From Candidatus Poribacteria bacterium (GTDB lineage Bacteria; Poribacteria; WGA-4E; WGA-3G): a DNA stretch of 64,000 nt. Numbering within the stretch: position 1 is the stretch's first letter; every line of letters starts with the position of its first letter. The notes under the pieces are model-generated. The model was not told the origin of the DNA. It was given only the letters and a program-made list of their open reading frames with translations, and searched no databases. Location: the NCBI GenBank assembly GCA_965215265.1, contig OZ244048.1, positions 608,001 through 672,000 of the forward strand, read 5' to 3'. Below are positions 7,446 to 25,152 of this stretch, one piece after another. Both the position numbers and the translations under genes were made by a program.

Positions 7446-7994
7446 ATGGATTGGGCGATAGTCGCTTCACTGTTTTGGAAAATCGGCCTCGGTATTTTTC
7501 TACTTGCCTTGACAGTACTCGCTGGCTATATGTGTGCAACCTTTGGCAGCCTCCGAAACTCGCTAAATAGCATCCAAAACACACTGAATTCTACCGAAAA
7601 TCTCGTGAATCAAGAACTCGGAGAATTGATTAATGAGATGCATCAGACTGTCAAAGAGGTGAACAAAGAATTACCGGAATTGCTACAAAATCTAAACGGA
7701 TTGACAGCTTCGTTTCAAGACATTAGCAACTCTGAACTTCAACCGACCGCACATAATATTCAAGAGATGAGTGAGGCTCTGAACCAGAGCATTAGGGAGC
7801 TCAGTGCCTTAGTTGAAAAAGCGAGTCAGTTTTCGGGCCAGACGCTTGAACAAGCGACGTTTTTCCGAAACCAACTTGCGACATCCCTGGCGGAACTCCT
7901 AAGTTTATGGCAGGGAATCAAAGCAGGCTGGGAAAACTTCCGGTCGAATTCCTCACAACCCGCACCCGCGGATGAGGAAGACACTGCTGCATAG
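7446..7994 (+). CDS. DUF948/YoxC-like membrane-anchored coiled-coil protein
   Basis: Single N-terminal TM segment then heptad-rich helix; paired with YtxH-like gene. Confidence 0.65.
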   Translation: MDWAIVASLFWKIGLGIFLLALTVLAGYMCATFGSLRNSLNSIQNTLNSTENLVNQELGELINEMHQTVKEVNKELPELLQNLNGLTASFQDISNSELQPTAHNIQEMSEALNQSIRELSALVEKASQFSGQTLEQATFFRNQLATSLAELLSLWQGIKAGWENFRSNSSQPAPADEEDTAA

Positions 7995-8157
7995 AAACAA
8001 AATGGCGAAAAAGGCAGAAGACGTTTACGCTGTCAGAATAGACCGAATCCTATTTCGTATATTCTAAACGTGTCGTACCACTTCTTACGAGAAAAACTGT
8101 AGCAAAAGATGTTTGAAAAAAACAATCTGAACCTAAACCTAATTGAAAGGAAAAAAA

Positions 8158-8568
8158 ATGAATAATAATGGACAGAACAGCGGGCTTGCAATGATATTCG
8201 CTTTCTTTACCGGTTTTTTAGCCGGGGCAGTTATCAGTCTACTCTATGCCCCCAGCTCAGGCAAGGAGACTCGCAAGAAGATACGCGAGAAATCCGTTGA
8301 TGCGAAAAACCGGACCGTAGAATTGGCACATCAAGCCTCCGAAAGCACACAAGAGAGCATTCATAACCTTGTTGAACAAGGTCGAGAAAATGTCCAAGGG
8401 CTCGTTGACCAAGGGAAAGAACGTCTTCATGATGCCGGTGAACAAGTAAAACAGGCTGTTGAAACAGGTCGACGTGTCTCCTCAGAGGTTCGCACGAAAC
8501 TGGCGAACTCCATTCCAAACATCAGCCAATCTGAAGAGGCTGATGAAGAAACGACCGAAAAATCCTAA
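8158..8568 (+). CDS. YtxH-domain protein
   Basis: [24 protein letters not shown] signature. Confidence 0.85.
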
Positions 8569-10245: not shown

Positions 10246-12165
10246 ATGCGAACAAGTAGCTCTGTCTTAACTCGCGGTGTTACGGTAAAATCCGTTACAC
10301 TGGCACTCATTTTCATTCCGATTAACTGCTATTGGATTATGTATACGGAAATGGTCTGGTGGGGTCTTTTCCCCACTACCATGTCGCTCTTTTTCAATGC
10401 AGTCTTCTTTCTTTTTTGTATTACGCTTCTCAATCTACTGTTACGAAGATATATGCGGCAGTGGGCCCTGACACACGGCGAGCTGCTTGTCATCTATATC
10501 ATGCTTTGTATGGCGAGTGCGATTGCATCGCACGACCACGCGCAGGTGCTTATCCCTATGATCGGACACGTTTTTTGGTTTGACACCCCAGAAAACGAGT
10601 GGCGGGAGCTCCTCTATAGATACATGCCCGAGTGGGCAACAGTCCAAGATAAACAGATTCTCGAGGGGTTTTATGAAGGCGAAACCCCGTTTTACCAGAT
10701 AGAAATTTTGCAGGCCTGGCTTGGACCGACTTTGTGGTGGACAAGCTTTATTGTCGTGCTAGTGTTTGTCATGGCTTGCATCAACGTCATCCTCCGTAAG
10801 CAGTGGACAGAACGTGAGAAACTCGCCTATCCGATTATACAACTGCCCTTAGAAATGACCCGTGAGAGTGGTGCCAAATTTTTCCGGGGCGGCCCTTTTT
10901 GGACCGCCTTCGTGCTGGTTTCACTCCTCAATCTCATCAACGGCCTCAGTTACCTGTTCCCGACGATTCCGATTATCGGTGTGCGGTTTCGGAATATCAG
11001 TCACTTTTTCACCGACAAACCGTGGGACGCGATTGGCTGGACCCCGTTTTCTATCTATCCGTTCGTGATCGGGCTCGGGTTTTTCATGCCGTTAGACCTG
11101 TCCTTCTCGTGTTGGTTCTTTTACCTATTTCGCAAGATGCAACGTGTCGGCGGTGCGATACTGGGGGTACGAGGATTGCCGGGTTTCCCTTATGATAGGC
11201 AGCAGTCGCTGGGTGCCTATCTTGGACTCGCAATTTTCGCTGTATGGGCAAGCCGGAAATACCTACTTCAGGTCTTCAAGCAGGTGACAACTGGCCGCTC
11301 AAGTCTTGATGAATCAGTTGAACCGCTGCCCTATCGCATCGCTATTTTAGGAATTGTCTTGGGGGGCATCTATCTCGTCGCGTTTTCAGTGAAACTCGGG
11401 ATAAGCATTTCGCTCGGTATCGCCTTTTTTGTCATCTACTTTGCTCTCTCAATGGGCATTACGCGGATGCGAGTTGAATCTGGCGCACCTGCACACGATC
11501 TGCATTTCATGGGACCAGATTACGCGCTTCCGACGATCTTAGGCTCCCGTCGTATGGGTGGCGGCAATTTGACAGCGCTCTCTTTTTTATTTTTCTTTAA
11601 CCGTGCGCACCGCAGTCACCCGATGCCACATCAATTAGAAGGGTTTCAACTCGCCTCTCGCGCAGGATTTAACCCAAAACCGCTGTTCTGGGCAATGCTC
11701 CTCGCTGTTCTCGTCGGTTCGGTGGCCTCGTTCTGGGCATATTTACACGATGTCTACCAATTCGGCTCAGCAGGAAGTTTTGCGAGGCACCCGTTTAACC
11801 GGCTGCAACAGCAACTTAACTTCCCCACGGGTCCGAACATCCCTGAAGTGACATTTATGGGTATCGGGATGGGGTTCACATTTCTGCTAATGTTTTTACG
11901 GATGCGTTTCTTCTGGTGGCCCTTCCATGCGGTTGGGTATGCAGTTTCTGGAGCATCAGATTGGTGCATGAACTGGCTGTGGATATCTCTCCTGATTAGC
12001 ACGGTGGCGAAATGGCTGATTATCAAGCAAGGTGGTTTGCAGTTACATCGAAAGGCTGCACCGTTCTTTTTCGGCCTAATTCTCGGGGAATTTGTGGCGG
12101 GGAGTGTGTGGAGTTTTTACGGCATGGCGACAGAGACGCGAATTTTCCCCTTTAAGGATTGGTGA
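10246..12165 (+). CDS. Polytopic membrane protein, DUF6785/DUF6784-like (putative transporter)
   Basis: Many TM helices; QWTEREKLAYPIIQLPL and WWPFHAVGY motifs; clear paralog at 50958-52901. Confidence 0.75.
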   Translation: MRTSSSVLTRGVTVKSVTLALIFIPINCYWIMYTEMVWWGLFPTTMSLFFNAVFFLFCITLLNLLLRRYMRQWALTHGELLVIYIMLCMASAIASHDHAQVLIPMIGHVFWFDTPENEWRELLYRYMPEWATVQDKQILEGFYEGETPFYQIEILQAWLGPTLWWTSFIVVLVFVMACINVILRKQWTEREKLAYPIIQLPLEMTRESGAKFFRGGPFWTAFVLVSLLNLINGLSYLFPTIPIIGVRFRNISHFFTDKPWDAIGWTPFSIYPFVIGLGFFMPLDLSFSCWFFYLFRKMQRVGGAILGVRGLPGFPYDRQQSLGAYLGLAIFAVWASRKYLLQVFKQVTTGRSSLDESVEPLPYRIAILGIVLGGIYLVAFSVKLGISISLGIAFFVIYFALSMGITRMRVESGAPAHDLHFMGPDYALPTILGSRRMGGGNLTALSFLFFFNRAHRSHPMPHQLEGFQLASRAGFNPKPLFWAMLLAVLVGSVASFWAYLHDVYQFGSAGSFARHPFNRLQQQLNFPTGPNIPEVTFMGIGMGFTFLLMFLRMRFFWWPFHAVGYAVSGASDWCMNWLWISLLISTVAKWLIIKQGGLQLHRKAAPFFFGLILGEFVAGSVWSFYGMATETRIFPFKDW

Positions 12166-12180
12166 GCTCCTTAAAGTGTT

Positions 12181-12204
12181 CTTGGTAACTTGTAGGTTGC
12201 CAAG
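12181..12204. terminator. Hairpin between convergent genes (terminator or relic IS end)
   Basis: CTTGGTAAC-ttgtag-GTTGCCAAG inverted repeat just past the iscB stop codon. Confidence 0.4.
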
Positions 12205-12240
12205 ATACCTTTCCCTTCGGGGGACTGGTTCGATTTCGTT

Positions 12241-14049
12241 TTAAGAAATTAAGGGGTTTTTCACCTTTTGTCTCGAATCCGGTGCGGTTGGAATGCAGGT
12301 CGCAATCTGATATGCGTATCCGTCGCGTTTCTGGATTTTGCGAAGTTGTTTGATATTGCCACCGACGCGATCGTCTCCGTCCCACGATTTTTTTACACGC
12401 AGTTTTTGAGGTTTTCCTTCAGATGTTTTATCAAACGAGTTGATATGTCCCACAACTTTCCCTTTGTGTGTGAGCATTTCGACCATATCCAGTTTTTGAA
12501 AACCGCCCGCGTGTTCAACACGCGTATAAGGTCGTTTGAATCCGGGCGCGGTCTGCTTTGTTTGGCAATTGCCTAAATCTCTGCGATGCCCGTATCCTAC
12601 TGCATGGATACCTAGCACAGAAAGCGGCATGTTTGGCAGTTTGACAACCCCTGCGACACACGCTGCATCATAGTAGTGTGTTTTTGGCAACCCCGCTTGT
12701 GAACGATGATATTTCGTTTTTCCACCGGTGCCACAGAAGACTTCAAGCCCCGTCGCTTTTAGCGTCTCTACAATCTTCCAACGAATCGTGTTGACTGCGG
12801 CAGCATCCTTTAGCGGTTTTTTGGCAGCTGCTGATGCTTTTTTCACACGTTCCGCAAAATCTTTACCATGTTCCTCTTCATTTATCTCATCAGGGTGTAG
12901 GTTACCTTTTTTGGTATTACACGGGCCACATGACAATGTCAGGTTATCCACACGGTTTGTACCTCCTTTCGCTTTCGGGATAATATGCTCTATTTCGAGA
13001 GGCACGTTCTTTTCCTTGCAATAATAACATTTCCGACCGAACTTCTCAAGTAGGTATTCCCGTATTTCATATCCTTGAAGTTTACCCTGTTGGTATTCCT
13101 CTCCCGATATTTTAGAGTTATCCATCAGTTGCATATCAAACTTCACGTGTTCAACTGCTAGCTTTTTGATAGGATAAAGCTTTGAAAGCCTGTTCACCCA
13201 TGTCGCGATATTATAGATACGTGACATCAAGGATGGTGCTACCCAACCATTATCGGGGTTCTCTTCTTTTTCGATAAAAGAAAAATATAATTGCGGTTCT
13301 TCACGGCGGTTGCGCTTTTGGGCGTTGCTATATTCACGTTTTAAGACACGCCGCCACCTTTTCTTTACAGAATGCTTTTTCGGGCTATAGGTGTACACCT
13401 TTTTTGGATAACGCTTTTTATACTGCTTATGTGCCTCGTTATTGCTATTATAGCGATAATATTTACCTCCTTTTTCATAGTAAATATCGCCAGTACGCAT
13501 GCGTTTCCCGTTGGCGTAATAGAGCCGTGTCTTCTCTCTATGTTTTGCAGGCGAAGGGCGTAACCGCGTCCACTCGTAACGCTTATCTTTCAGCATGGCA
13601 TCGCTGACACGATGGAATGTGTTTTCCGTTTTCCGGGTATTCTTGACTTTTTCATATATCCACTGCCCGTTTACAAGGCGAGGACTCTGACGAGAACGGT
13701 TATCAAATCGGGGGGCACGGTGACGACAGTTCCGAGTCCGCCTACTCCGACGATGCCCGCTTCTATCCGACAACGCTTTCTTAATGCTTTTCCGGTGATG
13801 CAACTCAAAAAAAGCAACGACGGTGTTCTCTGAATCTGTAATCGCCATGCCAGTGCATTTTGAGCCAGGGTCAATTGAGAGGGTATAGTCGCCTGTTTGT
13901 GACTCAGGCACCTCAAGTTTCAAGATAATGGTGAATGGATAACGTTTGTAGACCGCAGCCTTCTCCTCGCGAAGTAAACGCCTCGCAACAGCAGGATGGC
14001 ACGGTTCTAATACGCGTTTCTTTGTATCTAATACAGGAACTTTTGACAT
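12241..14049 (-). CDS. iscB: CRISPR-associated IscB (RRXRR/RuvC/HNH RNA-guided endonuclease) with a large REC-position insertion
   Basis: PLMP-like N-terminus (VPVLD..LEPCHPAVARRLL..YPFTIIL); RuvC-I SIDPGSK (D60); Arg-rich bridge helix RRSRRTR..RFDNR; RuvC-II VEHVKFD (E300); HNH CYYC..EIEHIIPKAKGGTNRVDNLTLSCGPCN (H355); RuvC-III THYYDA (H458/D461). Confidence 0.93.
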   Translation of the reverse strand: MSKVPVLDTKKRVLEPCHPAVARRLLREEKAAVYKRYPFTIILKLEVPESQTGDYTLSIDPGSKCTGMAITDSENTVVAFFELHHRKSIKKALSDRSGHRRSRRTRNCRHRAPRFDNRSRQSPRLVNGQWIYEKVKNTRKTENTFHRVSDAMLKDKRYEWTRLRPSPAKHREKTRLYYANGKRMRTGDIYYEKGGKYYRYNSNNEAHKQYKKRYPKKVYTYSPKKHSVKKRWRRVLKREYSNAQKRNRREEPQLYFSFIEKEENPDNGWVAPSLMSRIYNIATWVNRLSKLYPIKKLAVEHVKFDMQLMDNSKISGEEYQQGKLQGYEIREYLLEKFGRKCYYCKEKNVPLEIEHIIPKAKGGTNRVDNLTLSCGPCNTKKGNLHPDEINEEEHGKDFAERVKKASAAAKKPLKDAAAVNTIRWKIVETLKATGLEVFCGTGGKTKYHRSQAGLPKTHYYDAACVAGVVKLPNMPLSVLGIHAVGYGHRRDLGNCQTKQTAPGFKRPYTRVEHAGGFQKLDMVEMLTHKGKVVGHINSFDKTSEGKPQKLRVKKSWDGDDRVGGNIKQLRKIQKRDGYAYQIATCIPTAPDSRQKVKNPLIS

Positions 14050-14055
14050 AATGTC

Positions 14056-14256
14056 CTCTACTTTCGCAAGTAGGTAATGTAAGCCTCGATAATGTTAGTA
14101 TCGCTTTTGGGTCAAGGTTGACTGCGTATTGTACAGCTGTTTACAGAGCCTCCACAGAGCCTCAGACTGGCTTATGTATCCAAGGGTGTGATAACGAAAC
14201 TAACGTAGTTAAAAACTAAATCTTGATTACACTGTAGCCTACTTTTGTGTCGCAAC
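14056..14256 (-). ncRNA. tracrRNA-like omegaRNA (HEARO scaffold with 5' anti-repeat)
   Basis: Minus strand carries HEARO-like motifs CTACGTT (14202-14208), CACACCCTTGGA..GCCAGTCTGAGGCTCTG and AACATTATCGAGG (14084-14096). Pairable stems: GTTAGTTTCG/CGATACTAAC, CCTTGGA/TCTGAGG, TAAGCC/GGCTTA. Its 5' part (14225-14256) is complementary to the CRISPR repeat. Confidence 0.85.
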
Positions 14257-14260
14257 TTTT

Positions 14261-14304
14261 GCCGTCAACCTCCCAATAAAAATACATTATTGGGGGTCGA
14301 CTGC
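14261..14304 (-). other. Hairpin GTCGAC...GTTGAC between array and anti-repeat (possible relic omegaRNA 5' stem / IS200-IS605 end)
   Basis: Minus strand reads gcaGTCGACCCCCAATAA-tgtatt-TTTATTGGGAGGTTGACggc. Confidence 0.55.
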
Positions 14305-14350
14305 AAACTCTTCACGCTGGAGCTATACGCTCACTGCGTTCTCACATAGC

Positions 14351-16177
14351 GTTGCAACCTAAGCAAGCTACAGCGTAAACTCAAAATATGCTACAATACT
14401 AATATCAATTAAGAAGTTGCAACCTAAGCAAGCTACAGCGTAAACGCGTTAAGAGCGTTCGGATTCGTTGTCAAACAAATGTTGCAACCTAAGCAAGCTA
14501 CAGCGTAAACCAGGCAGCATATAACAAGTTCGCACTGTTATCAGATAGTTGCAACCTAAGCAAGCTACAGCGTAAACGAAGCCCTTTTCATACTAACAGA
14601 TGAAAGCAAACGGGTTGCAACCTAAGCAAGCTACAGCGTAAACGTATTCTATGATATGCCAACCGTGGATGCGGTTTGTGTTGCAACCTAAGCAAGCTAC
14701 AGCGTAAACTGCTACGAGGTTTTTCATATTGAAAGCATGACGCAGGTTGCAACCTAAGCAAGCTACAGCGTAAACTAAACCGAATGCTATGACTACTAAC
14801 GTCATGCCAGCGTTGCAACCTAAGCAAGCTACAGCGTAAACTACGTACGATCCACTGTGCATACGTCTGCCCAGGGATCGTTGCAACCTAAGCAAGCTAC
14901 AGCGTAAACGAGGGTTACCTTTTCTGAAATCATTTCATCCCCCCAATGGTTGCAACCTAAGCAAGCTACAGCGTAAACTGAAGCCCTTTTCATACTAACA
15001 GATGAAAGCAAACGGTTGCAACCTAAGCAAGCTACAGCGTAAACAGTAACCCAATCAGCCAGCTGCAGCACACACTGCAGCGTTGCAACCTAAGCAAGCT
15101 ACAGCGTAAACTATTACACAAGCGCGTTGGGAGAGCAAACTGAAAGAGTTGCAACCTAAGCAAGCTACAGCGTAAACTTGATTGAGTATCTCAACTTCAT
15201 TCGTTGGCCATACAGTTGCAACCTAAGCAAGCTACAGCGTAAACACAGAAGCGTCGCCTGATGAAATCCGTAAGGTCCAAAGTTGCAACCTAAGCAAGCT
15301 ACAGCGTAAACCGCGTCCTCGAAAGGATCCACGGTGAATCTGCTCTGGTTGCAACCTAAGCAAGCTACAGCGTAAACTGCTCTCTTTCTGCTCTTATAGC
15401 ATCGACTGTGTCTGTGTTGCAACCTAAGCAAGCTACAGCGTAAACTTAGATATGCAAATGAAAGCTGGCATGCTTGATTCTAAGTTGCAACCTAAGCAAG
15501 CTACAGCGTAAACTTTACGATTTTGAGAACTGTCGGCTGGTATCATGAACGTTGCAACCTAAGCAAGCTACAGCGTAAACCTCGCTACGTCAACCCCGAC
15601 GGCACGCAATGTCTCTGGTTGCAACCTAAGCAAGCTACAGCGTAAACCTTGCAAGGATATTCTCATTAAATTCACTTATTGGAGTTGCAACCTAAGCAAG
15701 CTACAGCGTAAACATGTAGGATATGAGATTGCCTGCTTCGTGTGCCTCGTTGCAACCTAAGCAAGCTACAGCGTAAACTACTTCAATGTTTCGATCGGTT
15801 CGTATCCTGCGGCCTGTTGCAACCTAAGCAAGCTACAGCGTAAACATCGGAAAGGGGGATACGCTGAAGTTGACAGAACACGTTGCAACCTAAGCAAGCT
15901 ACAGCGTAAACATGAAAAAGATTTTTCATCTCAACCGTCCTTTTGAAAGTTGCAACCTAAGCAAGCTACAGCGTAAACTTACTGTAGTATCCTTCGATTT
16001 CCGCAACTTCTGCCGTTGCAACCTAAGCAAGCTACAGCGTAAACTCTTTTGACTTTACCGTATCCTTGTGTCCGTTTTTTAGTTGCAACCTAAGCAAGCT
16101 ACAGCGTAAACGCATTACGCCCAACCCACACAAGCAACGATTCTGACGCTGTAACATAAGCAGGCTACCACGTAAAC
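14351..16177 (-). CRISPR. CRISPR array: 28 repeats (27 identical, 1 degenerate at 16148-16177), 27 spacers of 35-39 nt
   Basis: 30-bp repeat GTTGCAACCTAAGCAAGCTACAGCGTAAAC on + (GTTTACGCTGTAGCTTGCTTAGGTTGCAAC as transcribed); strand assigned from the promoter at 16180-16208 and the G:U-compatible anti-repeat. Confidence 0.98.
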
Positions 16178-16179
16178 AT

Positions 16180-16208
16180 ATTATATCTTAACTTGCAAAA
16201 AAAGTCAA
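16180..16208 (-). promoter_or_regulatory. sigma70 promoter driving the CRISPR array toward the tracr-like RNA and iscB
   Basis: Minus-strand TTGACT (16203-16208)-N17-TATAAT (16180-16185); overlapped by inverted repeat TTAACTTG...CAAGTTAA (16188-16213). Confidence 0.8.
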
Positions 16209-16555
16209 GTTAAAGTTGCAGCCTCTCATTTACCCCCATTTTTTTTGAAGGTTTGTGGTGAAAGGTTTTTGTTTAGAAATGTGTGAGAAAAGCAGTGGGT
16301 TAGAGATACCCGAACCGGGTAAATCCCACATCTCTGATAACCCGTTTTCAAGACACCTTCAAGGCTTCTGGGACCTCCGCCCCTAGCCCGATGCCACCGG
16401 CACCGAAGACAGCAGCCCTCTGCTTGCAGGGAGACATGAGGTTACCATCAAAAATCTAAAAAAAGAGTGACTTTTTTTCCCATCTGTGTTATACTTCTTT
16501 GCGAGCCAAGTGGCAAACTGGAAAAATGCAGCTTGCGGCAGGCAGGTAAAAAACG

Positions 16556-16633
16556 ATGAAAAAGAATTTCACTACCATTCGGCTCTGGGATGTCAACACA
16601 GGCGAACCCCTCAAAACTCTCATGTCTGTCTAA
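16556..16633 (+). pseudogene. WD40-repeat gene remnant
   Basis: MKKNFTTIRLWDVNTGEPLKTLMSV*: a single WD40 fragment (TIRLWDVNTG..LKTL) ending at the Rpn stop codon. Confidence 0.55.
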
Positions 16634-17727
16634 GTGTGCAAGGCTTGTAGGAACGCTTCAAAACTGGGTGTCTCAACGGCGATGAGATGCAGCTGCTTGA
16701 GCCGCACCAGGTCTGGTATGGCTTCAAGGTGCGGTTGAGTCGTCTGCACGTCGCTCTGCGGGAACCGTGCGGTGAGCACCGTGATGACGTTTTCTATCGC
16801 ATTCCGGCGTGCACCTTGTTCAATGCCTTGCTCAATGCCTTGTTTGAGTCCTTGTTGCACCAGGACTTCTGCCATTGTCTCTGCCATCTGTTTTACCTCC
16901 ATCTTATCTTCTGCGAGTTGCTCCACTAATGCGACTAAGCCACTTTGTTCTGATAGCGGCCGACGATGCAAGATGAGTAGCAGGAAATAGACTATCGCCT
17001 CACGCCGCTGTTCGGCACCAACCGTATCAAACTCATCAAGGTGTGCTATCGCCGTGCGTAACGCATCCCGTATCTCCGCCTCGTCTGCTCTCTCTTTTTG
17101 CAGCACCGTCAAAAGCCACCCGAACGGATGATGCGTTTGAGTCAGTGTGGCGACATCGGTTTGCTTCACGCTCAAAAACAGCGTCTCAAAGGCAGGAACG
17201 AACCGGGCGAGTTCAGCAGGGATGTCCATCAGTGCCTCAAGTGTCAGCGGGGTTTTCCACTGCTGCTCGCCGGTATAAAACACAATCGGCAGTATCGGGG
17301 GCAACCGCCGCGCCGGTTTGGGCACCTTGTCGTGTTCCCATTGCCTGCGATGTGCGTCCCAAATCAGCATCATATAAAACAGCACCCGAAACCCCATCGT
17401 CGCATCCACCGTCGATTGATGTTCGACGAGCAGATAGATGAGCAGCGCCTCGGTGGCTGTCTCGGTTCTAAACGGGACGCGGAACACGCTATCCGCTTCC
17501 TGCTCCCGCAGCACTTCCGGCAGCAGGCTTCTCGGGAGTGGAACGAGTTGGCTAAAATCTATGCGTTCTGCGATGTCAGCGGCGACGATTTCTAGCACAC
17601 CCCGGACGTTTTCGCCGTTTTGTAGCAAGCGCCGCACACTTCTGTCGGCGAAGTGTTCAACGCGTCCATCAAGCAGCGCGCGGATATGCTGCATCTGCGT
17701 ATCCACGGCTTTGGTTTCTTGCGTCAT
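16630..17727 (-). CDS. Rpn family recombination-promoting nuclease / YhgA-like putative transposase
   Basis: EADSVF..IYLLVEHQSTVDATMGFRVLFY, LPPILPIVFYTGEQQW, C-terminal QGLKQGIEQGIEQG repeats. Confidence 0.9.
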   Translation of the reverse strand: MTQETKAVDTQMQHIRALLDGRVEHFADRSVRRLLQNGENVRGVLEIVAADIAERIDFSQLVPLPRSLLPEVLREQEADSVFRVPFRTETATEALLIYLLVEHQSTVDATMGFRVLFYMMLIWDAHRRQWEHDKVPKPARRLPPILPIVFYTGEQQWKTPLTLEALMDIPAELARFVPAFETLFLSVKQTDVATLTQTHHPFGWLLTVLQKERADEAEIRDALRTAIAHLDEFDTVGAEQRREAIVYFLLLILHRRPLSEQSGLVALVEQLAEDKMEVKQMAETMAEVLVQQGLKQGIEQGIEQGARRNAIENVITVLTARFPQSDVQTTQPHLEAIPDLVRLKQLHLIAVETPSFEAFLQALHT

Positions 17728-17976: not shown

Positions 17977-20900
17977 ATGCGAACACCAAAACAGAAACTC
18001 CAAACGCTTCTCCAACAACTCTTCCGTACCGATGCCGCCGAACTCGACTTCGGCATCTACCGCATCATTAACTACCGCCGCAACCAAATCCAAAACTTTA
18101 TAGATACCGAGCTCCCCACCCTCATCAACGACGCGCTCCACGCAGACACACACGCAGAAAATGCACACCAACAGATAGAAACCCTCGCAAAACAGATACA
18201 ACAAACCCTCGGCGACACCGTCTTAGACGCAGACGGAAACCTGCTCAACGAGAACTTCAGACAAGCCCCACTTGTCCAGCAATACCTCACCGCAAAACAA
18301 CAACTCGGCACCCCCAGAACCCAAACCGAGCGCGCCGATGCCGTTTTCAATCACCTCTACACCTTTTTCTCACGCTACTACGAAAATGGCGACTTCCTCC
18401 CACGCAGACGCTACACGCAAACCCAACGATACGCCATCCCGTATAACGGCGAAGAAGTCTACCTCCACTGGGCAAACCGAGAACAATACTACGTCAAAAG
18501 CGGAGAGCATTTCACCGGTTACACGTTCAAAGCCGAAGCGATTACTGTCACCTTCTCGCTCCGCACCATAGACATAGAAAAGGACAACGTCAAAGGCGCG
18601 AAACGCTTCTTCATTCCGCTCTCTGCCGAAACGCAGTATCGCCCGGAAACCAAGCAGCTGGAGCTCCCGTTTGAACATCGTCCGCTCACTGATGCGGAAA
18701 AGAAGCGCTACGGCAAGCAGAAACAACAAGAGAAAATCCTGGATGCCGCTGAACCTGAAATCCTAGCAAACCTGAGCGCTCACTATGAAGTGCTGTCTGC
18801 CCTAGAGCGCCGCACGGATGAACTAAGCACGCTGAAGAAACACCTGCGCACCTACACGCGCCGCAACACGTCGGACTTCTTCATCCACAAGGCGCTGAAG
18901 CGATTCCTGACGCGTGAGTTAGATGTATATCTAAAAAACGAGGTTATCCCTCTGTCTGGCTTTATACTTAACACATATCAAGGGGGGGGGCGGTACGGGC
19001 AAATGGAAACGGCCCCACGCCGCCACCTTGGCTTGAAACCGCACAACTCGTTCACCGCATCGCCACACAACTCATCCACTTCCTCGCTGACATAGAAGAC
19101 TTTCAGAAACGCCTCTGGCTCAAAAAGAAATTCGTCCTCTCTACCGACTACTGCCTCACGCTCGACCGGGTCCCGGAAGCGTTCTACCCCGAAATCGCTC
19201 ACAACCGCGCACAACGCGAGGCGTGGCAGCACCTCTTCGCCATTGAGGATATCGCAGGCCACCTCATCAACACCGACTATTCTGAGCCGCTCACGGTGGC
19301 ATTCCTCCAGCAAAACCCGAACCTCGTTCTGGATACCTGTCACTTCGACGCAGACTTCAAAGACCGGCTGCTGGCACACTTCGACGAACTGGATGCCCAA
19401 ACCGATGGACTGCTCATTCATGGAGAGAATTTCCAAGCGTTAAACCTCCTCACCGCGAAATACCGAGACACCGTGAAAGCCATCTACATAGATCCGCCCT
19501 ATAACACCAAAGGCTCCCCAATTTTGTATAAGAATGACTATAAAGATTCATCATGGATGTCTCTCATGGCTGACCGAATTGCTATTTCCCGGGAGTTATT
19601 AACAAACAACGGTACCTTCTGTGCCGCCATTGATGAAGTGGAAGCTCCTAACCTTTGGCAGCTTCTCCAACAGCTATTTGGCAAAGAAAATGAACTTGGG
19701 GTTGCAGTGGTCTGTACAAACATATCCGGGGTCACAACACCTAAGAGACTCGCTGCATGTCACGAATATGCCATGTTCTTCGGCAAGAAACCTGACGTAA
19801 AGGTCGGACATGTTAAATGGACGGAAAAACAACTCAAAAACTATAAAGATATTGACAATCAAGGCCGCCGTTTCAGATGGGTAAATCTCAGGAATGATGC
19901 CGGAGGCCCTAATAAACTGCGGGAAAACAGCCCGCGTATGTTCTACCCGCTTTTCGTGAGCGATCAGAACATACGCATTCCGAAAATTGAGTGGGATGAA
20001 GAAGCTAGGCAGTGGCAACTATTAGAATCCCCTACCCCGAATGAAACAGAAGTATTACCGATTCAGCCAAATGGAAATGAAGTGACATGGCAATACTCGA
20101 TAGAACGGGTGGAGGCGATGTTATCATCATCCGAACTGTATGCGAGAAAAGATAAAAATGGGAATATCCGAATCCGCTTAAAGTGGTTCCTAAAAGAGGA
20201 GGGTATATTGCCAAAAACATGGTGGGATAAAAATGTATACGCTGCTGGTAGATATGGAACGACTTTTCTCACAGATATGTTCAGCGACAATTTTGCATTT
20301 CCATATCCGAAGTCCATCTATCTCGTAGAGGATTGCCTCCGCGTCTCTTCGCTGGGTAAAAACGATACTGTCTTAGACTACTTCGCAGGTTCTGGCACCA
20401 CCGCCCACGCCACCATCAACCTGAACCGCCAAGACAACGGCAACCGAAAATATATTCTCGTAGAAATGGGACACCACTTCAACACCGCTCTCAAACCCCG
20501 GCTCCTCAAAGCCATATACGCACAAAACTGGAAACACGCAAAACCCACATCACGCCAAAGCAAACTCTCACACCTCTTCAAATACCAACGCATAGAATCC
20601 TACGAAGATACACTCAACAACATCCAGTTCAAAACACACCAAAATCCGCTCTTTCAAGAACCGATGCTACGCTATCTGTTAGGAAACGAAACCCATGAGA
20701 GCCCAACGCTGCTCAACATTGAGAAGCTCCAAACCCCATTTCACTATCAACTCAACATCGTCACCGGGCTAAACACACAAACACAAACCATAGACATTCC
20801 GGAAACCTTCAACTACCTGCTTGGGCTCACCGTCAAAACCCGGCGCGTCTTCTACGATAAAGCCAGACGCTACCTCGTCTACCGTGGCACTCTCCAGGCG

Positions 20901-21092
20901 AAGAGCGTCACGATTATCTGGCGAGAGACGCACGGCTGGCAACCGGAAGATTGGGAAAGAGACTCTCGTTTTATTCAACACCATAAACTCACGGAACACG
21001 CAGACACGCTCTATGTGAACACCGACAGCATCGTCCCCGAGGCAAAAGCGTTGGACGTGCTCTTCAAACAGTTAATGTTCACCGAACCGTGA
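17977..21092 (+). pseudogene. mod: Type III R-M methyltransferase (Mod), frameshifted at a G9 tract (18982-18990); possibly phase-variable
   Basis: 5' part: ELDFGIYRI, FFSRYYENGDF, YNGEEVYLHWAN..QYYVKS. A second frame is open from 18990: IHFLADIEDFQKRLWLKKKFV, IYIDPPYN (motif IV), LDYFAGSGTT (motif I). G10 or G7 would join the two frames. Confidence 0.88.
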
Positions 21093-21998: not shown

Positions 21999-22062
21999 GT
22001 GTCCGAACAGCCCCTATTGTCTTTCGCTAAAGCAAATGTCTACTTTTCAAGGAATTCGCACT

Positions 22063-25000
22063 ATGTCCAAACCTCGCAGCCTAGAAACCGAGCTCCTCCG
22101 CCACGCCTGGCTCAATCACAACTTCGGCTACAACACCACCGGCGAGCTGCTCCACGCCATGAAAAACGAAGCGGAACGCCTCAGCCAAGACGGACACGCC
22201 GCCCTCACTGAAGCGCTCCGCGCACGCGCCACACCGCCAATCGCAGACGCACTCCCAACCTACGATGCCAACATCCAACGCCACCTCAATGCCATCAACC
22301 GCACCCGAATCCAACCCATCCGCCTCCGCTATTTCCAATACCTCGCACTCCTCTACACCGAAATCTGCCTCGATTGGACATTGAATAAACGCACCGCCTT
22401 CTTGCACCACCTCAACGCCTTCGTCCAACAACGCAACGCCGACAAAGCCCCCGGCGAACCCCAACACGCCCGCTTCACCGACGCAGAACTCGATAAACTC
22501 GCCTTCTGGATGGCGACAGGGGCAGGCAAAACCCTCATTCTCCACATCAACTACCACCAGTTCCGACACTACTGCCAAACCCCGTTGGATGACATTCTGC
22601 TCATCACGCCCAACGAGGCTTTGAGCGAACAACACCGGCGCGAACTCGCAAACTCTGACATCCCCGCAGAACGCTTCCAAATGCACCGAAACCGCATCGC
22701 ACACACACACAACGCCATACAGATACTCGAAATCACAAAACTCGTCATCCAAAAAACAGGAGAAGGCGACACCATACCCGTTGAGGCGTTTGAGGGCAAC
22801 AACCTTATTTTCGTTGATGAGGGACACAAAGGCACCGGCGGAGATGTCTGGCGCCACCTTCGCCAACAACTCGCCCAGACAGGCTTCACCTTTGAATACA
22901 GCGCCACCTTCGGACAAGCGCTCGCCGCCGCAAAAAACCGAGAACGCGTTGAGGAATACGGCAAAGCCATCGTCTTCGACTATTCATACCGCCACTTTTA
23001 CGCAGACGGCTACGGAAAAGACTTCCGCATCCTCAACCTCAAACACGACGAACACACCCAAACCGAGACGCTCCTCCTCGCCAATCTCCTCGCTTTCTAC
23101 CAACAGCACCACTACTTCACACACAACCGAGACATCGCACACACCTATGGATTAGACGCACCCCTCTGGGCGTTCGTCGGCAGCAAAGTCAACGCCGTCT
23201 ATACCGAAAAGCACACAAAACGCTCCGATGTCCTCACCGTCCTCCGATTCCTCCACCGATTCCTAAAAAACCCGCACAACTGGGCCATCCGCACCCTCGC
23301 CAAAATCCTGAATGGAGAGAGCGGGCTCACCGATGAAAACGGCACCGATGTCTTCGCCAACCAATTCCCTCTGCTCTCTCAACTTCACAAAACCCCAGCC
23401 GACATATACACCGCCATCCTCACAGAAGTCTTCCATACCGATACCCATGGCGCACTGCATCTCTCTCACATCCGAAACGCACCCGGCGAAATCGCACTCA
23501 AAGCCACACACGGCCGCCAGAACTTCGGACTGCTCTACATCGGCGATACCGCTTCCTTCAAAAAACTCGTTGAAACCGATGATGCCGCCATCGTCTTCGA
23601 CACCGATAATCTCATCACGGAGAGCCTTTTCACCCACATCAACACGCCCACGAGCCCCATCAATCTCCTCATCGGCGCCAAAAAGTTCATAGAGGGCTGG
23701 GACAGCTGGCGTGTCACCGCCATGGGACTGCTCAACATCGGCAGGCAAGAAGGCGCACAAATCATACAACTCTTCGGGCGCGGAGTGCGCCTGCGCGGCA
23801 AACAGATGAGCCTAAAACGCAGCAGCGCCCTCGACGGCGAACATCCACCCCATCTCCGGCTATTGGAAACCCTCAACATCTTCGCCGTCCGGGCAAACTT
23901 CATGGCACAATTCCGAGAATACCTCACCCGTGAAGGTATCCCTGCAGAAGAACCTGTCCACATAGAAATCCCCATCAAACCCAACAAAGATTGGCTACAG
24001 GCACCGCTGTTTGTCCCAGAAGTCCCAGCCTACCGCGACGACGCGAAAGACACCTGCGTGCCCTTAGCCGTCAACCCAGGCATCTATATCACCCATCGCA
24101 CCCAAACCGTTGAAATCCTACAAAGTCGCAACACCGAAAGCATACAAGACAGCACCGCACAACCCGCCATAACCCACGCACACATCCCACACGACAGCCT
24201 CAACCTCCTCAACTGGGAAGCAATCTACCTCCAACTCATCGAATACAAACAGCAAAAGCAGTATCACAATCTCATCTTCGATACCCCCACCCTCAAACGC
24301 ATCATCGCCCCAGACGCTGGCACCTATCAACTCGCCATCAGAGACGAAACTGACATCATACCCACGTCTCTCACAGAACTCGCCCGGGTAGAGCAACTCG
24401 TCCTCACACTGCTCCGCAAGTATCTCACCAAATTCTACGGCACCATCCAGAAACGGTGGAGTGAGCATCGCATCCGCCTCCGCATCTTAGACGAAAAAGA
24501 CACGAACTTCACCAACTGGCGCGTCGCCATCTCCCAAAACAACGCACAGGAACTGGTGCCGCACCTCACAGCCCTCATAGAGGCTGGCACCATCTACGGC
24601 CCCGACTTCACCGCGCTACCCACCGCCTATAACGAATGCCACCTCTACCAACCCCTCCTCGCCGAGGACAACCGCACCATAGAACGCACCACCCCACCCC
24701 CTTTGAACGCAAGCGAAAAAGCGTTTGTCGAAGATATGCACCGCTACATCCGAAAACATCACAACAGAAAACAGATTGTCCTCTTACGCAACCACAGCCG
24801 AGGCAAAGGCATCGGATTCTATCAAAACCACGGATTCTACCCCGACTTCATCCTCTGGATGCTTCACGACGGCAAACAACGCATCGTCTTCATTGAACCG
24901 CACGGCCTGATGCATGAAGCCATCAACCCACACAACCACAAAATCACGCTATTCAAAACACTCCGCCACATCAGCGATACACGGTTCCGCAGGCAGCCCG

Positions 25001-25152
25001 TCGAAATGGATGCCTATATCATCTCCAGCACCGATTTCACACAGATGCAGAAAAAATGCGGACTCGACAAACTGACTTTCGAGCAGTGGCATATCCTTTT
25101 CCCAAACCCTACCGATACCACATACCTCGAACCAATTTTCAGACAGACGTAA
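22063..25152 (+). CDS. res: Type III restriction endonuclease subunit (SF2 helicase plus PD-(D/E)XK-like nuclease)
   Basis: MATGAGKT (Walker A), VDEGH, EYSATF, FIEGWD, QLFGRGVR, C-terminal FYPDFILW..FIEPHG. Confidence 0.9.
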   Translation: MSKPRSLETELLRHAWLNHNFGYNTTGELLHAMKNEAERLSQDGHAALTEALRARATPPIADALPTYDANIQRHLNAINRTRIQPIRLRYFQYLALLYTEICLDWTLNKRTAFLHHLNAFVQQRNADKAPGEPQHARFTDAELDKLAFWMATGAGKTLILHINYHQFRHYCQTPLDDILLITPNEALSEQHRRELANSDIPAERFQMHRNRIAHTHNAIQILEITKLVIQKTGEGDTIPVEAFEGNNLIFVDEGHKGTGGDVWRHLRQQLAQTGFTFEYSATFGQALAAAKNRERVEEYGKAIVFDYSYRHFYADGYGKDFRILNLKHDEHTQTETLLLANLLAFYQQHHYFTHNRDIAHTYGLDAPLWAFVGSKVNAVYTEKHTKRSDVLTVLRFLHRFLKNPHNWAIRTLAKILNGESGLTDENGTDVFANQFPLLSQLHKTPADIYTAILTEVFHTDTHGALHLSHIRNAPGEIALKATHGRQNFGLLYIGDTASFKKLVETDDAAIVFDTDNLITESLFTHINTPTSPINLLIGAKKFIEGWDSWRVTAMGLLNIGRQEGAQIIQLFGRGVRLRGKQMSLKRSSALDGEHPPHLRLLETLNIFAVRANFMAQFREYLTREGIPAEEPVHIEIPIKPNKDWLQAPLFVPEVPAYRDDAKDTCVPLAVNPGIYITHRTQTVEILQSRNTESIQDSTAQPAITHAHIPHDSLNLLNWEAIYLQLIEYKQQKQYHNLIFDTPTLKRIIAPDAGTYQLAIRDETDIIPTSLTELARVEQLVLTLLRKYLTKFYGTIQKRWSEHRIRLRILDEKDTNFTNWRVAISQNNAQELVPHLTALIEAGTIYGPDFTALPTAYNECHLYQPLLAEDNRTIERTTPPPLNASEKAFVEDMHRYIRKHHNRKQIVLLRNHSRGKGIGFYQNHGFYPDFILWMLHDGKQRIVFIEPHGLMHEAINPHNHKITLFKTLRHISDTRFRRQPVEMDAYIISSTDFTQMQKKCGLDKLTFEQWHILFPNPTDTTYLEPIFRQT

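Follow-up and report, generated by a model that had tools for sequence, protein, structure and literature searches.

The window analysed here (the whole stretch, 64 kb long, from a genome akin to Candidatus Poribacteria) carries on its minus strand, at 12241-16208, what is very probably a domesticated, single-copy defence locus built on a CRISPR-associated IscB (CasIscB). Read from its far end, the locus comprises a promoter, a clustered regularly interspaced short palindromic repeat (CRISPR) array, an anti-repeat joined to a HEARO/omegaRNA scaffold, and iscB. An earlier note on this DNA had described these four elements in series on the minus strand, and each was found where it had been placed (Table 1). 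The IscB array of this sponge-symbiont-type bacterium seems to obtain its spacers from an unrelated CRISPR system nearby and to have them read backwards. The explanation as a whole, combining a CasIscB with spacer supply from a type I-B system and antisense reading of the array, is considered likely, with defence as the presumed role of the locus. What is new is that adaptation genes are absent from the window yet present in the genome, with a type I-B link to the IscB array.

The repeat GTTTACGCTGTAGCTTGCTTAGGTTGCAAC occurs in 27 exact copies (14351-16111), 100 shuffles yielded none, and no copy lies outside the array in the 4,833,177-base single-contig genome, which has a single iscB gene. 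The array is thus as long and homogeneous as had been claimed, and the near-consensus promoter upstream of it was likewise recovered. The covariance model for HEARO (Rfam RF02033) matches 14074-14301(-) with 75.6 bits (E 8.2e-15), which is under the Rfam gathering score, and this is the sole HEARO match in the genome. In the alignment the first (5′) helix is flagged as non-pairing, i.e. P1 is not formed in cis, and its 3′ half is the anti-repeat. Pairing of the repeat with the anti-repeat is predicted at -38.1 kcal/mol, compared with -20.4 +/- 2.9 kcal/mol for shuffled repeats, none of 500 shuffles being as low. The discrete anti-repeat fused to an omegaRNA scaffold that the earlier note proposed is therefore present.

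The same arrangement recurs in related loci. Among 47 loci fetched from species genomes, the closest of which are all titled Candidatus or uncultured Poribacteria, a homologous 30-nucleotide (nt) repeat (GTTaTCGCTTGGGCATG...GTTGCAAC) is found upstream of iscB on the same strand in 10 of the 46 other loci, in 4-27 copies (L024, L025, L027-L032, L034 and L056, all Poribacteria). Each of the ten also has an anti-repeat, in most loci ~93 nt past the last repeat, and arrays of 13-27 repeats occur in 6 loci. The repeat of the present locus is deviant in its centre and fits its own anti-repeat only, the other ten anti-repeats giving background values of -20 to -24 kcal/mol, and repeat and anti-repeat therefore co-vary. 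The possibility that the array is a chance neighbour, with close homologs lacking the anti-repeat, is ruled against by these ten loci. What defines a CasIscB is a CRISPR array next to iscB with a repeat able to pair with the anti-repeat that opens the omegaRNA scaffold at its 5′ end, and this arrangement is conserved and co-varies in 11 loci. No full spacer is common to any of the 11 loci, including L029 and L031, which have near-identical proteins, and spacers 18 and 24 of the present array derive from one protospacer with an offset of 1 nt; both observations suggest spacer turnover at IscB arrays.

CRISPR-array-associated IscBs are reported to have been found by Altae-Tran et al. 2021 (PMC11610941, PMC10734217). 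In the available text of PMC12660989, CasIscBs cut DNA using an array-containing non-coding RNA (ncRNA), and DelIscB's ncRNA includes spacers, repeats and an anti-repeat; its authors regard it as a possible intermediate and its processing as unknown. The accessible part of PMC13180657 names CasIscBs as a class and selects IscBs with insertions resembling the recognition (REC) lobe. Its supplementary file 6 (2025) lists PbaIscB-2, from the same contig as locus L019, with its target-adjacent motif (TAM) given as '-', and PbaIscB-3 from 'JAAXHC010000956.1 (CR)', Candidatus Poribacteria, with a sequence of 612 characters, a REC-position insertion and the TAM NGG. The scaffold tested for PbaIscB-3 in that supplement has repeat, loop and anti-repeat in one RNA. 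With CasIscBs in print in the accessible text of PMC11610941, PMC12660989 and PMC13180657, and PbaIscB-3 of the same Poribacteria clade tabulated, the earlier suggestion of an undescribed lineage is not supported. A full-text literature search for IscB together with Poribacteria returned no paper, and the literature that was searchable held no evidence of a spacer supplier or of antisense array reading for a CasIscB.

The present locus shares with the CasIscBs so described a PLMP-bearing IscB, a same-strand upstream array, an anti-repeat fused to the omegaRNA scaffold and a locus without cas genes. With PbaIscB-3, as far as its tabulated sequence goes, it shares a repeat identical at 25 of 30 positions, followed by the same GCTATG... 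stretch, hairpin and anti-repeat, and a REC-position insertion. It differs in that its array is 27 spacers long and its insertion is a different, longer variant (~130 amino acids (aa), beta-rich).

No cas1, cas2, cas4 or cas6 was found in the window, and Y1 tnpA (TnpA) was found neither there nor in the whole genome. The earlier statement that these genes are missing is correct within the window, and genome-wide for TnpA, but not for the adaptation genes of the genome, in which two modules lie outside the window (C1:522163-523990 and C1:1468300-1470207). A type III-A plus I-B locus ~87 kb from the IscB array encodes Cas10/Csm2-5, Cas8b, Cas7, Cas5, Cas3, Cas4, Cas1b and Cas2, with the I-B Cas4-Cas1-Cas2 genes at C1:522163-523990 and an I-B/III-A array of 170 repeats of 30 nt at C1:524241-535561. 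In a type I-D locus, Cas4 and Cas1 are fused and the array comprises 64 repeats, each 37 nt long.

Several features of the sequences suggest that the I-B Cas1-Cas2-Cas4 feeds the IscB array in trans, which is held to be probable by a modest balance of the evidence. Spacer 17 of the IscB array and spacer 96 of the I-B array are identical at 36 of 37 positions, have equal first and last bases, and are both in the + strand sense, following ...GCGTAAAC and ...ATCGAAAC respectively. The + strand is the I-B transcription sense, since it carries the cas operon, the leader promoter (TTGACA-17-TATACT) and the repeat end ...GAAAC, and it is antisense to iscB. The identical 37-nt boundaries of the twin spacers argue for the same PAM-and-ruler machinery (PAM, protospacer-adjacent motif). 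Spacer lengths peak at 36>37>38>35 in I-B arrays, at 36>37>35=38 in IscB arrays and at 38 in the I-D array. An end-composition model, covering the six positions at either end of a spacer and trained with 668 I-B spacers, favours the I-B sense for 144 IscB-array spacers (log-likelihood ratio +20.8, permutation p 0.003); per spacer the value is 0.144 for IscB arrays and 0.12-0.28 for true I-B arrays left out in turn.

The repeats and their flanks point to the iscB-proximal end as the site of integration. Of the 11 loci, 7 have a degenerate repeat at the iscB-distal end, and in 10 the proximal repeat agrees with the consensus, the exception being L029 with a single variant letter. Since it is the leader-side repeat that is duplicated on integration, the degenerate end cannot be where integration is going on. 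Taken in the I-B sense, the bases leading into the first repeat are [CT]ATAG[CG] in 8 of 11 IscB arrays (ATAG at -5..-2), and I-B leaders end GATAGC or TAAAGC (A[AT]AGC) in 5 of 8. As a recipient of I-B spacers the array has a 30-nt repeat, spacers of 35-39 nt and the I-B spacer sense; its repeat is not of the I-B family.

The I-B PAM was read from the flanks of mutually overlapping I-B spacers, using 1,166 spacers from 13 loci together with the genome's own I-B array. The 11 readable 5′ flanks were CCA (three), CCG (two) and TCA, TCG, GCG, ACG, ACA and CTG (one each). Position -2 was C in 10 of these 11 (binomial p 3.6e-6), position -1 a purine in all 11 (p 4e-4) and position -3 C in 6 (p 0.02); the 3′-flank control (n=19) was patternless. 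These spacers imply a 5′-(C)CR PAM. Its reverse complement is YG(G), and antisense reading would therefore place YG(G) immediately 3′ of the protospacer on the IscB non-target strand, beside the repeat-proximal seed end. The sole measured TAM in the clade is NGG (PbaIscB-3). The fit of the (C)CR complement to NGG, obtained from an indirect PAM and the TAM of a relative, is suggestive, and a true mirror of PAM and TAM is slightly favoured.

Protospacers were sought in several collections. A BLAST search with the array in 176 genomes of the phylum yielded weak matches only (E 0.004-0.007), and the one inspected (L081) was a chance match inside a gene. An exact scan of viral_contigs and metagenome_contigs with spacer 17 gave 0 matches, and INPHARED phages gave no match. 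In the genome itself only short matches of 16-20 nt were found, plus the I-B twin. A chromosomal palindromic hairpin upstream of a gene (G000:C1:3910669-3910712) resembles the target common to IscB spacer 17 and I-B spacers 11 and 96; the resemblance is imperfect, with 20 nt exact, and the hairpin is thus not a true self-target.

A number of observations weigh against the explanation favoured here. As protospacers were not found, the PAM or TAM for the present array was not seen directly, and NGG belongs to PbaIscB-3, whose subclade is only ~45-55% identical to the present IscB. The spacer 17/96 pair is the only full twin, 1 of 147 IscB-array spacers set against 669 I-B spacers in 8 genomes, and no spacers are shared between IscB and I-B arrays in 6 other genome pairs. 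The I-B and IscB repeats are dissimilar save for their length and ...AAAC end. The degenerate repeat may simply be free of selection, being in no crRNA (CRISPR RNA), and arrays persist in three genomes (G004, G007 and G008) without I-B-type cas1. For its 27 repeats the locus has a single anti-repeat; an internal promoter was not found, and processing into separate crRNA and omegaRNA is a prediction. The HEARO score also falls below the gathering score of 83.

Some of these points would be explained if the array were real and used by IscB but not fed by the I-B system, its spacers coming from the I-D Cas4-Cas1/Cas2 or by an unknown route, or acquisition having stopped, with the shared spacer reflecting a hot target. 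The single shared spacer, the repeats unlike those of I-B, the arrays in genomes that have no I-B-type cas1 and the palindromic hairpin in the shared target, with its chromosomal look-alike, all speak for this. It is nonetheless rather unlikely, given the identical boundaries of the twin spacers, spacer lengths that fit I-B and not I-D, and the outcome of the orientation test. The related genomes without I-B-type cas1 (G004 with none, G007 with a Cas4-Cas1 fusion only, and G008 with a fragment) also have the shortest and most decayed arrays, of 3-8 spacers, although the relation of array length to cas1 content is weak evidence because the loci are close kin.

The locus is proposed to work as follows. 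One minus-strand RNA, begun at the strong far-end promoter, would comprise the degenerate repeat, the 27 spacer-repeat units and the omegaRNA, and probably iscB as well. Each 30-nt repeat can, as predicted in silico, pair with the lone anti-repeat, which would remake the guide-adaptor stem that is a cis helix in ordinary omegaRNAs. The last spacer-repeat unit would be a natural single-guide RNA, and the 26 internal units would pair after RNase III-type processing or in trans, by analogy with Cas9 and RNase III. IscB would then cut DNA matching the repeat-proximal part of the spacer beside a 3′ TAM, which is NGG in PbaIscB-3. New spacers would most likely come in trans from the I-B Cas1-Cas2-Cas4 ~87 kb away and integrate at the iscB-proximal repeat, giving an array with I-B polarity on the + strand that IscB would read antisense, with the complement of the I-B 5′ PAM landing at the IscB 3′ TAM site.

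A rival scheme is that of a plain omegaRNA, in which IscB is guided by the last spacer alone, linked in cis to repeat, loop and anti-repeat, and the other 26 units are inert duplications. PbaIscB-3 was tested in this cis form, according to the accessible supplement, and the split crRNA/tracr-omegaRNA of the earlier note (tracr, trans-activating crRNA) gains nothing from that relative, its repeat, loop and anti-repeat being in one RNA. The scheme also accords with one anti-repeat per transcript, with the internal promoter that was sought in the array and not found in a scan of 12100-16700, and with the existence of the single-repeat relatives L019 and L021. The same scan found no terminator-like site between the array and iscB. 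However, all 27 repeats are identical whereas the sole unused repeat has decayed, the spacers are diverse, I-B-like in length and wholly different between near-identical loci, and arrays of 13-27 repeats recur in 6 loci. Inert duplication is accordingly quite improbable.

The protein is an ordinary IscB by hidden Markov model (HMM), as the check proposed in the earlier note has borne out. It scores 384.5 bits with NCBIfam guided_IscB (NF040563, cut-off 175), has Pfam matches to RRXRR (9.2e-57, 192 bits) and HNH, and keeps the PLMP/RRXRR domain. It does not reach the cut-offs of the Cas9d model (NF049971, 43.7 bits, cut-off 375) or of the Cas9 model TIGR01865 (22.7 bits, cut-off 100). Transposon IscBs score 44.0 (L042), 39.4 (L035) and 53.7 bits (L037) with the Cas9d model, and the present IscB is therefore no nearer to Cas9d than they are. 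The catalytic residues reported as intact, RuvC D60, E300 and D461 and HNH H355, are invariant columns in an alignment of 45 sequences, as is H458. The best solved relative by sequence is TbaIscB (126.7 bits; OgeuIscB, 83).

Alignment with OgeuIscB places query residues 112-267 against OgeuIscB residues 115-159, and the stretch from R100 to W284 has three sizes in the family, namely 59 residues (short forms), ~113 (medium) and 166-192 (the present IscB and P0002-P0010). The insertion forms have common motifs, NTFxRVSxAxLxDxRYxW and KKRWRRV, and the long variant is found elsewhere only in P0002-P0010, which are 57-66% identical. A Protein Atlas search with residues 118-268 returned RRXRR clusters only (best score 0.86) and nothing new. 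In an AlphaFold2 model (mean predicted local distance difference test score (pLDDT) 72, predicted template modelling score (pTM) 0.61) the insertion has strands at 120-135, 142-145, 158-162 and 189-199 and short helices at 205-213 and 238-246, with residues 242-267 of low confidence or disordered. It is thus predicted to consist of beta hairpins and Lys/Arg/Tyr-rich stretches, not a helical bundle, and neither a helical nor a zinc-finger REC lobe is in the model. Foldseek with the whole model ranks IscB structures at the top, followed by II-D Cas9 and then other Cas9s. The insertion is therefore at the REC position, as had been claimed, and the model gives no support for a REC-like fold.

The earlier note took the locus for a candidate IscB-to-Cas9 intermediate that may be an undescribed lineage. 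In its full form this reading places the lineage directly between IscB and Cas9, with a REC lobe in the making. An insertion of ~130 aa at the REC position, a repeat and anti-repeat that obey dual-RNA logic, and the similarity to TbaIscB, which the available text of published papers calls the founding member of the Cas9 lineage, are in keeping with that view. It is very improbable in light of the Cas9d score, which equals those of ordinary transposon IscBs (39-54 bits), the predicted beta-rich structure of the insertion, an insertion size graded within the present clade alone, the retained PLMP domain and a clade already in print as PbaIscB-2 and PbaIscB-3 in the accessible supplement. Since the protein is an ordinary IscB by HMM, scores no higher than transposon IscBs with the Cas9d model and has a beta-rich insertion, the locus belongs to the already described CasIscB class and is very probably not an intermediate between IscB and Cas9.

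A satellite type I-B/III-A array transcribed from the + strand for those effectors, with IscB a bystander, is hardly credible, for although the spacers have I-B polarity and solo or mini I-B repeats are scattered through the genome, most of the repeat is unlike that of I-B, the I-B repeat reaches just -14 to -17 kcal/mol with the anti-repeat region, no + strand promoter facing the array was found in the scan of 12100-16700, and the anti-repeat co-varies with the repeat in 11 loci, in which the array is always upstream of iscB.

The CasIscB with its probable I-B supply can be set beside other known systems. OgeuIscB, from the IS200/IS605 OMEGA (obligate mobile element-guided activity) systems (PDB 7utn/7xht/8csz), has the same fold, catalytic residues and HEARO-type scaffold. 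Unlike IS200/IS605 OMEGA IscBs, the present locus is single-copy in a genome without TnpA, its P1 is broken in cis and remade by the repeat, and it has many guides where those have one derived from the flank. Type II-D Cas9 (Cas9d; PMC9755519, in the text available; PDB 9k31, 9k32, 9lgi) likewise combines a small RuvC/HNH effector with an anti-repeat RNA and an array, and adaptation genes are often absent from its locus. The present protein differs in being far below the Cas9d cut-off, in keeping PLMP and in having a model without a helical or zinc-finger REC lobe, and its array has the geometry of type I-B, with a 30-nt repeat and 36-nt spacers.

Use in trans of the adaptation module of another system is known, with type III arrays served by type I and type VI-B by II-C. 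There too, an effector without cas1 or cas2 depends on the integrase of a co-resident system. What differs is that in this genome an OMEGA-type effector, with a distinct repeat of its own, would be the recipient, and reading of the array from the other strand would turn a 5′ PAM into a 3′ TAM. The clade could then represent a living series from a transposon guide RNA to an adaptive CRISPR system independent of Cas9, in which an OMEGA effector took over a class 1 adaptation module through an array of I-B polarity with a leader overlapping the omegaRNA 5′ end, filled in trans and read antisense, (C)CR becoming YG(G)/NGG. The case for this is evenly balanced. Within the Poribacteria clade the arrays of this series grow from a single repeat to 27 spacers, and a linker of 59 residues gives way to an insertion of 190.

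Among the known CasIscBs the locus is an additional member with a long array and a large insertion, and it is a candidate for a compact editor. For CasIscBs and many II-D Cas9 loci there is the wider question of where an effector without an integrase obtains its spacers and how these are matched to its TAM. This genome gives a testable answer, since the supplier (C1:522163-523990), integration at the iscB-proximal repeat, orientation and the CCR/YGG mirror are all predicted. If true, it would be one way for an OMEGA nuclease to become adaptive immunity without evolving adaptation genes of its own.

Table 1. Features of the iscB locus, in window coordinates unless residues are given.
Feature	Position	Strand	Basis or remarks
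Sigma-70-type promoter, TTGACT-17-TATAAT	16180-16208	(-)	11/12 consensus positions; best of 8 sites within 12100-16700
Degenerate terminal repeat, 6 mismatches	16148-16177	(-)	First repeat transcribed; dispensable for every spacer-repeat crRNA
CRISPR array, 27 identical 30-nt repeats and 27 spacers of 35-39 nt	14351-16147	(-)	Repeat scan and shuffles
Spacer 17, twin of type I-B array spacer 96	15045-15081	(+) sense as in I-B array, antisense to iscB	36/37 nt, same ends
Stretch between last repeat and omegaRNA hairpin; candidate leader for spacer integration	14302-14350	(-)	On + strand ends ...CATAGC at repeat, cf. I-B leader end ...GATAGC
Conserved hairpin GTCGAC...GTTGAC within HEARO P1 loop	14264-14301	(-)	Kept in 11 loci with altered loop and stem letters
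Anti-repeat GTTGCGACACAAAAGTAGGCTACAGTGTAATC, pairing with whole repeat (~20 bp, internal loop, 8 bp)	14225-14256	(-)	Duplex energy and co-variation across loci
omegaRNA/HEARO scaffold (nexus and 3′ stems), reaching iscB start	14074-14224	(-)	Rfam RF02033
iscB, 602 aa: PLMP/RRXRR N-terminus, RuvC-I, bridge helix, insertion, RuvC-II, HNH, RuvC-III, C-terminal TAM-side domains	12241-14049	(-)	Profiles, alignment, model
iscB insertion, ~130 aa	~residues 120-265		Between bridge helix and RuvC-II

An IscB relative at E<=1e-20 is present in 22 of 176 species genomes of the phylum, and the lone same-genus genome is without one. In a quick IQ-TREE search (57 rows, drawn with midpoint rooting, without Cas9d or TbaIscB and with database rows that lack a known genomic context) the Poribacteria IscBs form one group (Shimodaira-Hasegawa-like approximate likelihood ratio test (SH-aLRT) 97), in which the array-bearing L034 and L032 branch first. 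The present IscB is sister to P0002 (99) within a 23-row subgroup that includes the short forms. These short-form relatives, L019-L023 (454-577 aa), all have a HEARO match (5 of 5), with 1 repeat in L019 and L021, 2 in L020, 4 in L023 and 0 in L022. Distal promoters of a kind comparable to that of the present array (9/12 positions) are found only in L025, L027 and L032, making 4 of 11 loci with the present one included. In L025, L027, L032 and L056 an extra hairpin of 40-60 nt interrupts the anti-repeat, leaving the repeat:anti-repeat duplex in two halves. L019 and L021 are two iscB copies on one contig, 28 kb apart, and at L019:2267-2343, 3.5 kb upstream of PbaIscB-2, Rfam RF00029 matches a group II intron domain with 70.2 bits. 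L022, which has no IscB-type repeat, has a 47-nt tandem repeat upstream of iscB and an unrelated CRISPR array with 37-nt repeats just downstream (L022:2557-3197, 7466-8223).

Of 176 genomes of the phylum, 108 carry type I-B repeats of the family seen in this genome, and a single genome can have as many as 415 copies. The present genome also has, at six places away from cas genes, twelve solo or mini (2-3 copies) repeats of this type on its reverse strand (G000:C1 23953, 2273093, 3923450, 4318526, 4463391 and 4751058). A 491-aa HNH protein near one solo repeat was considered and set aside, as this neighbour is an unrelated methylase-HNH fusion.

Contigs from four sequencing runs break at each repeat of the IscB array and carry differing subsets of spacer units, the distal unit (16084-16263) being found in X1-X3. 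Parts left uncovered by these contigs are not readable as absence, and no array polarity was drawn from them. A dispersed repeat of ~140-196 nt, at 16224-16420, starts just upstream of the array promoter and has ~20 further copies in the genome (80-96% identity). It has very high summed depth and many loose ends in the four runs and looks like a MITE-type element (miniature inverted-repeat transposable element).

Beyond it lies a YhgA-like nuclease gene of the YhgA/Transposase_31 family (16630-17727(-)), followed by an N6_N4_Mtase DNA methylase and a ResIII/SNF2 helicase over 17977-21092(+) and 22036-25152(+). The open reading frames at 17977-19095 and 19296-21092 may be a single gene in two pieces. 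Together, the methylase and helicase beside the array resemble a type III restriction-modification system.

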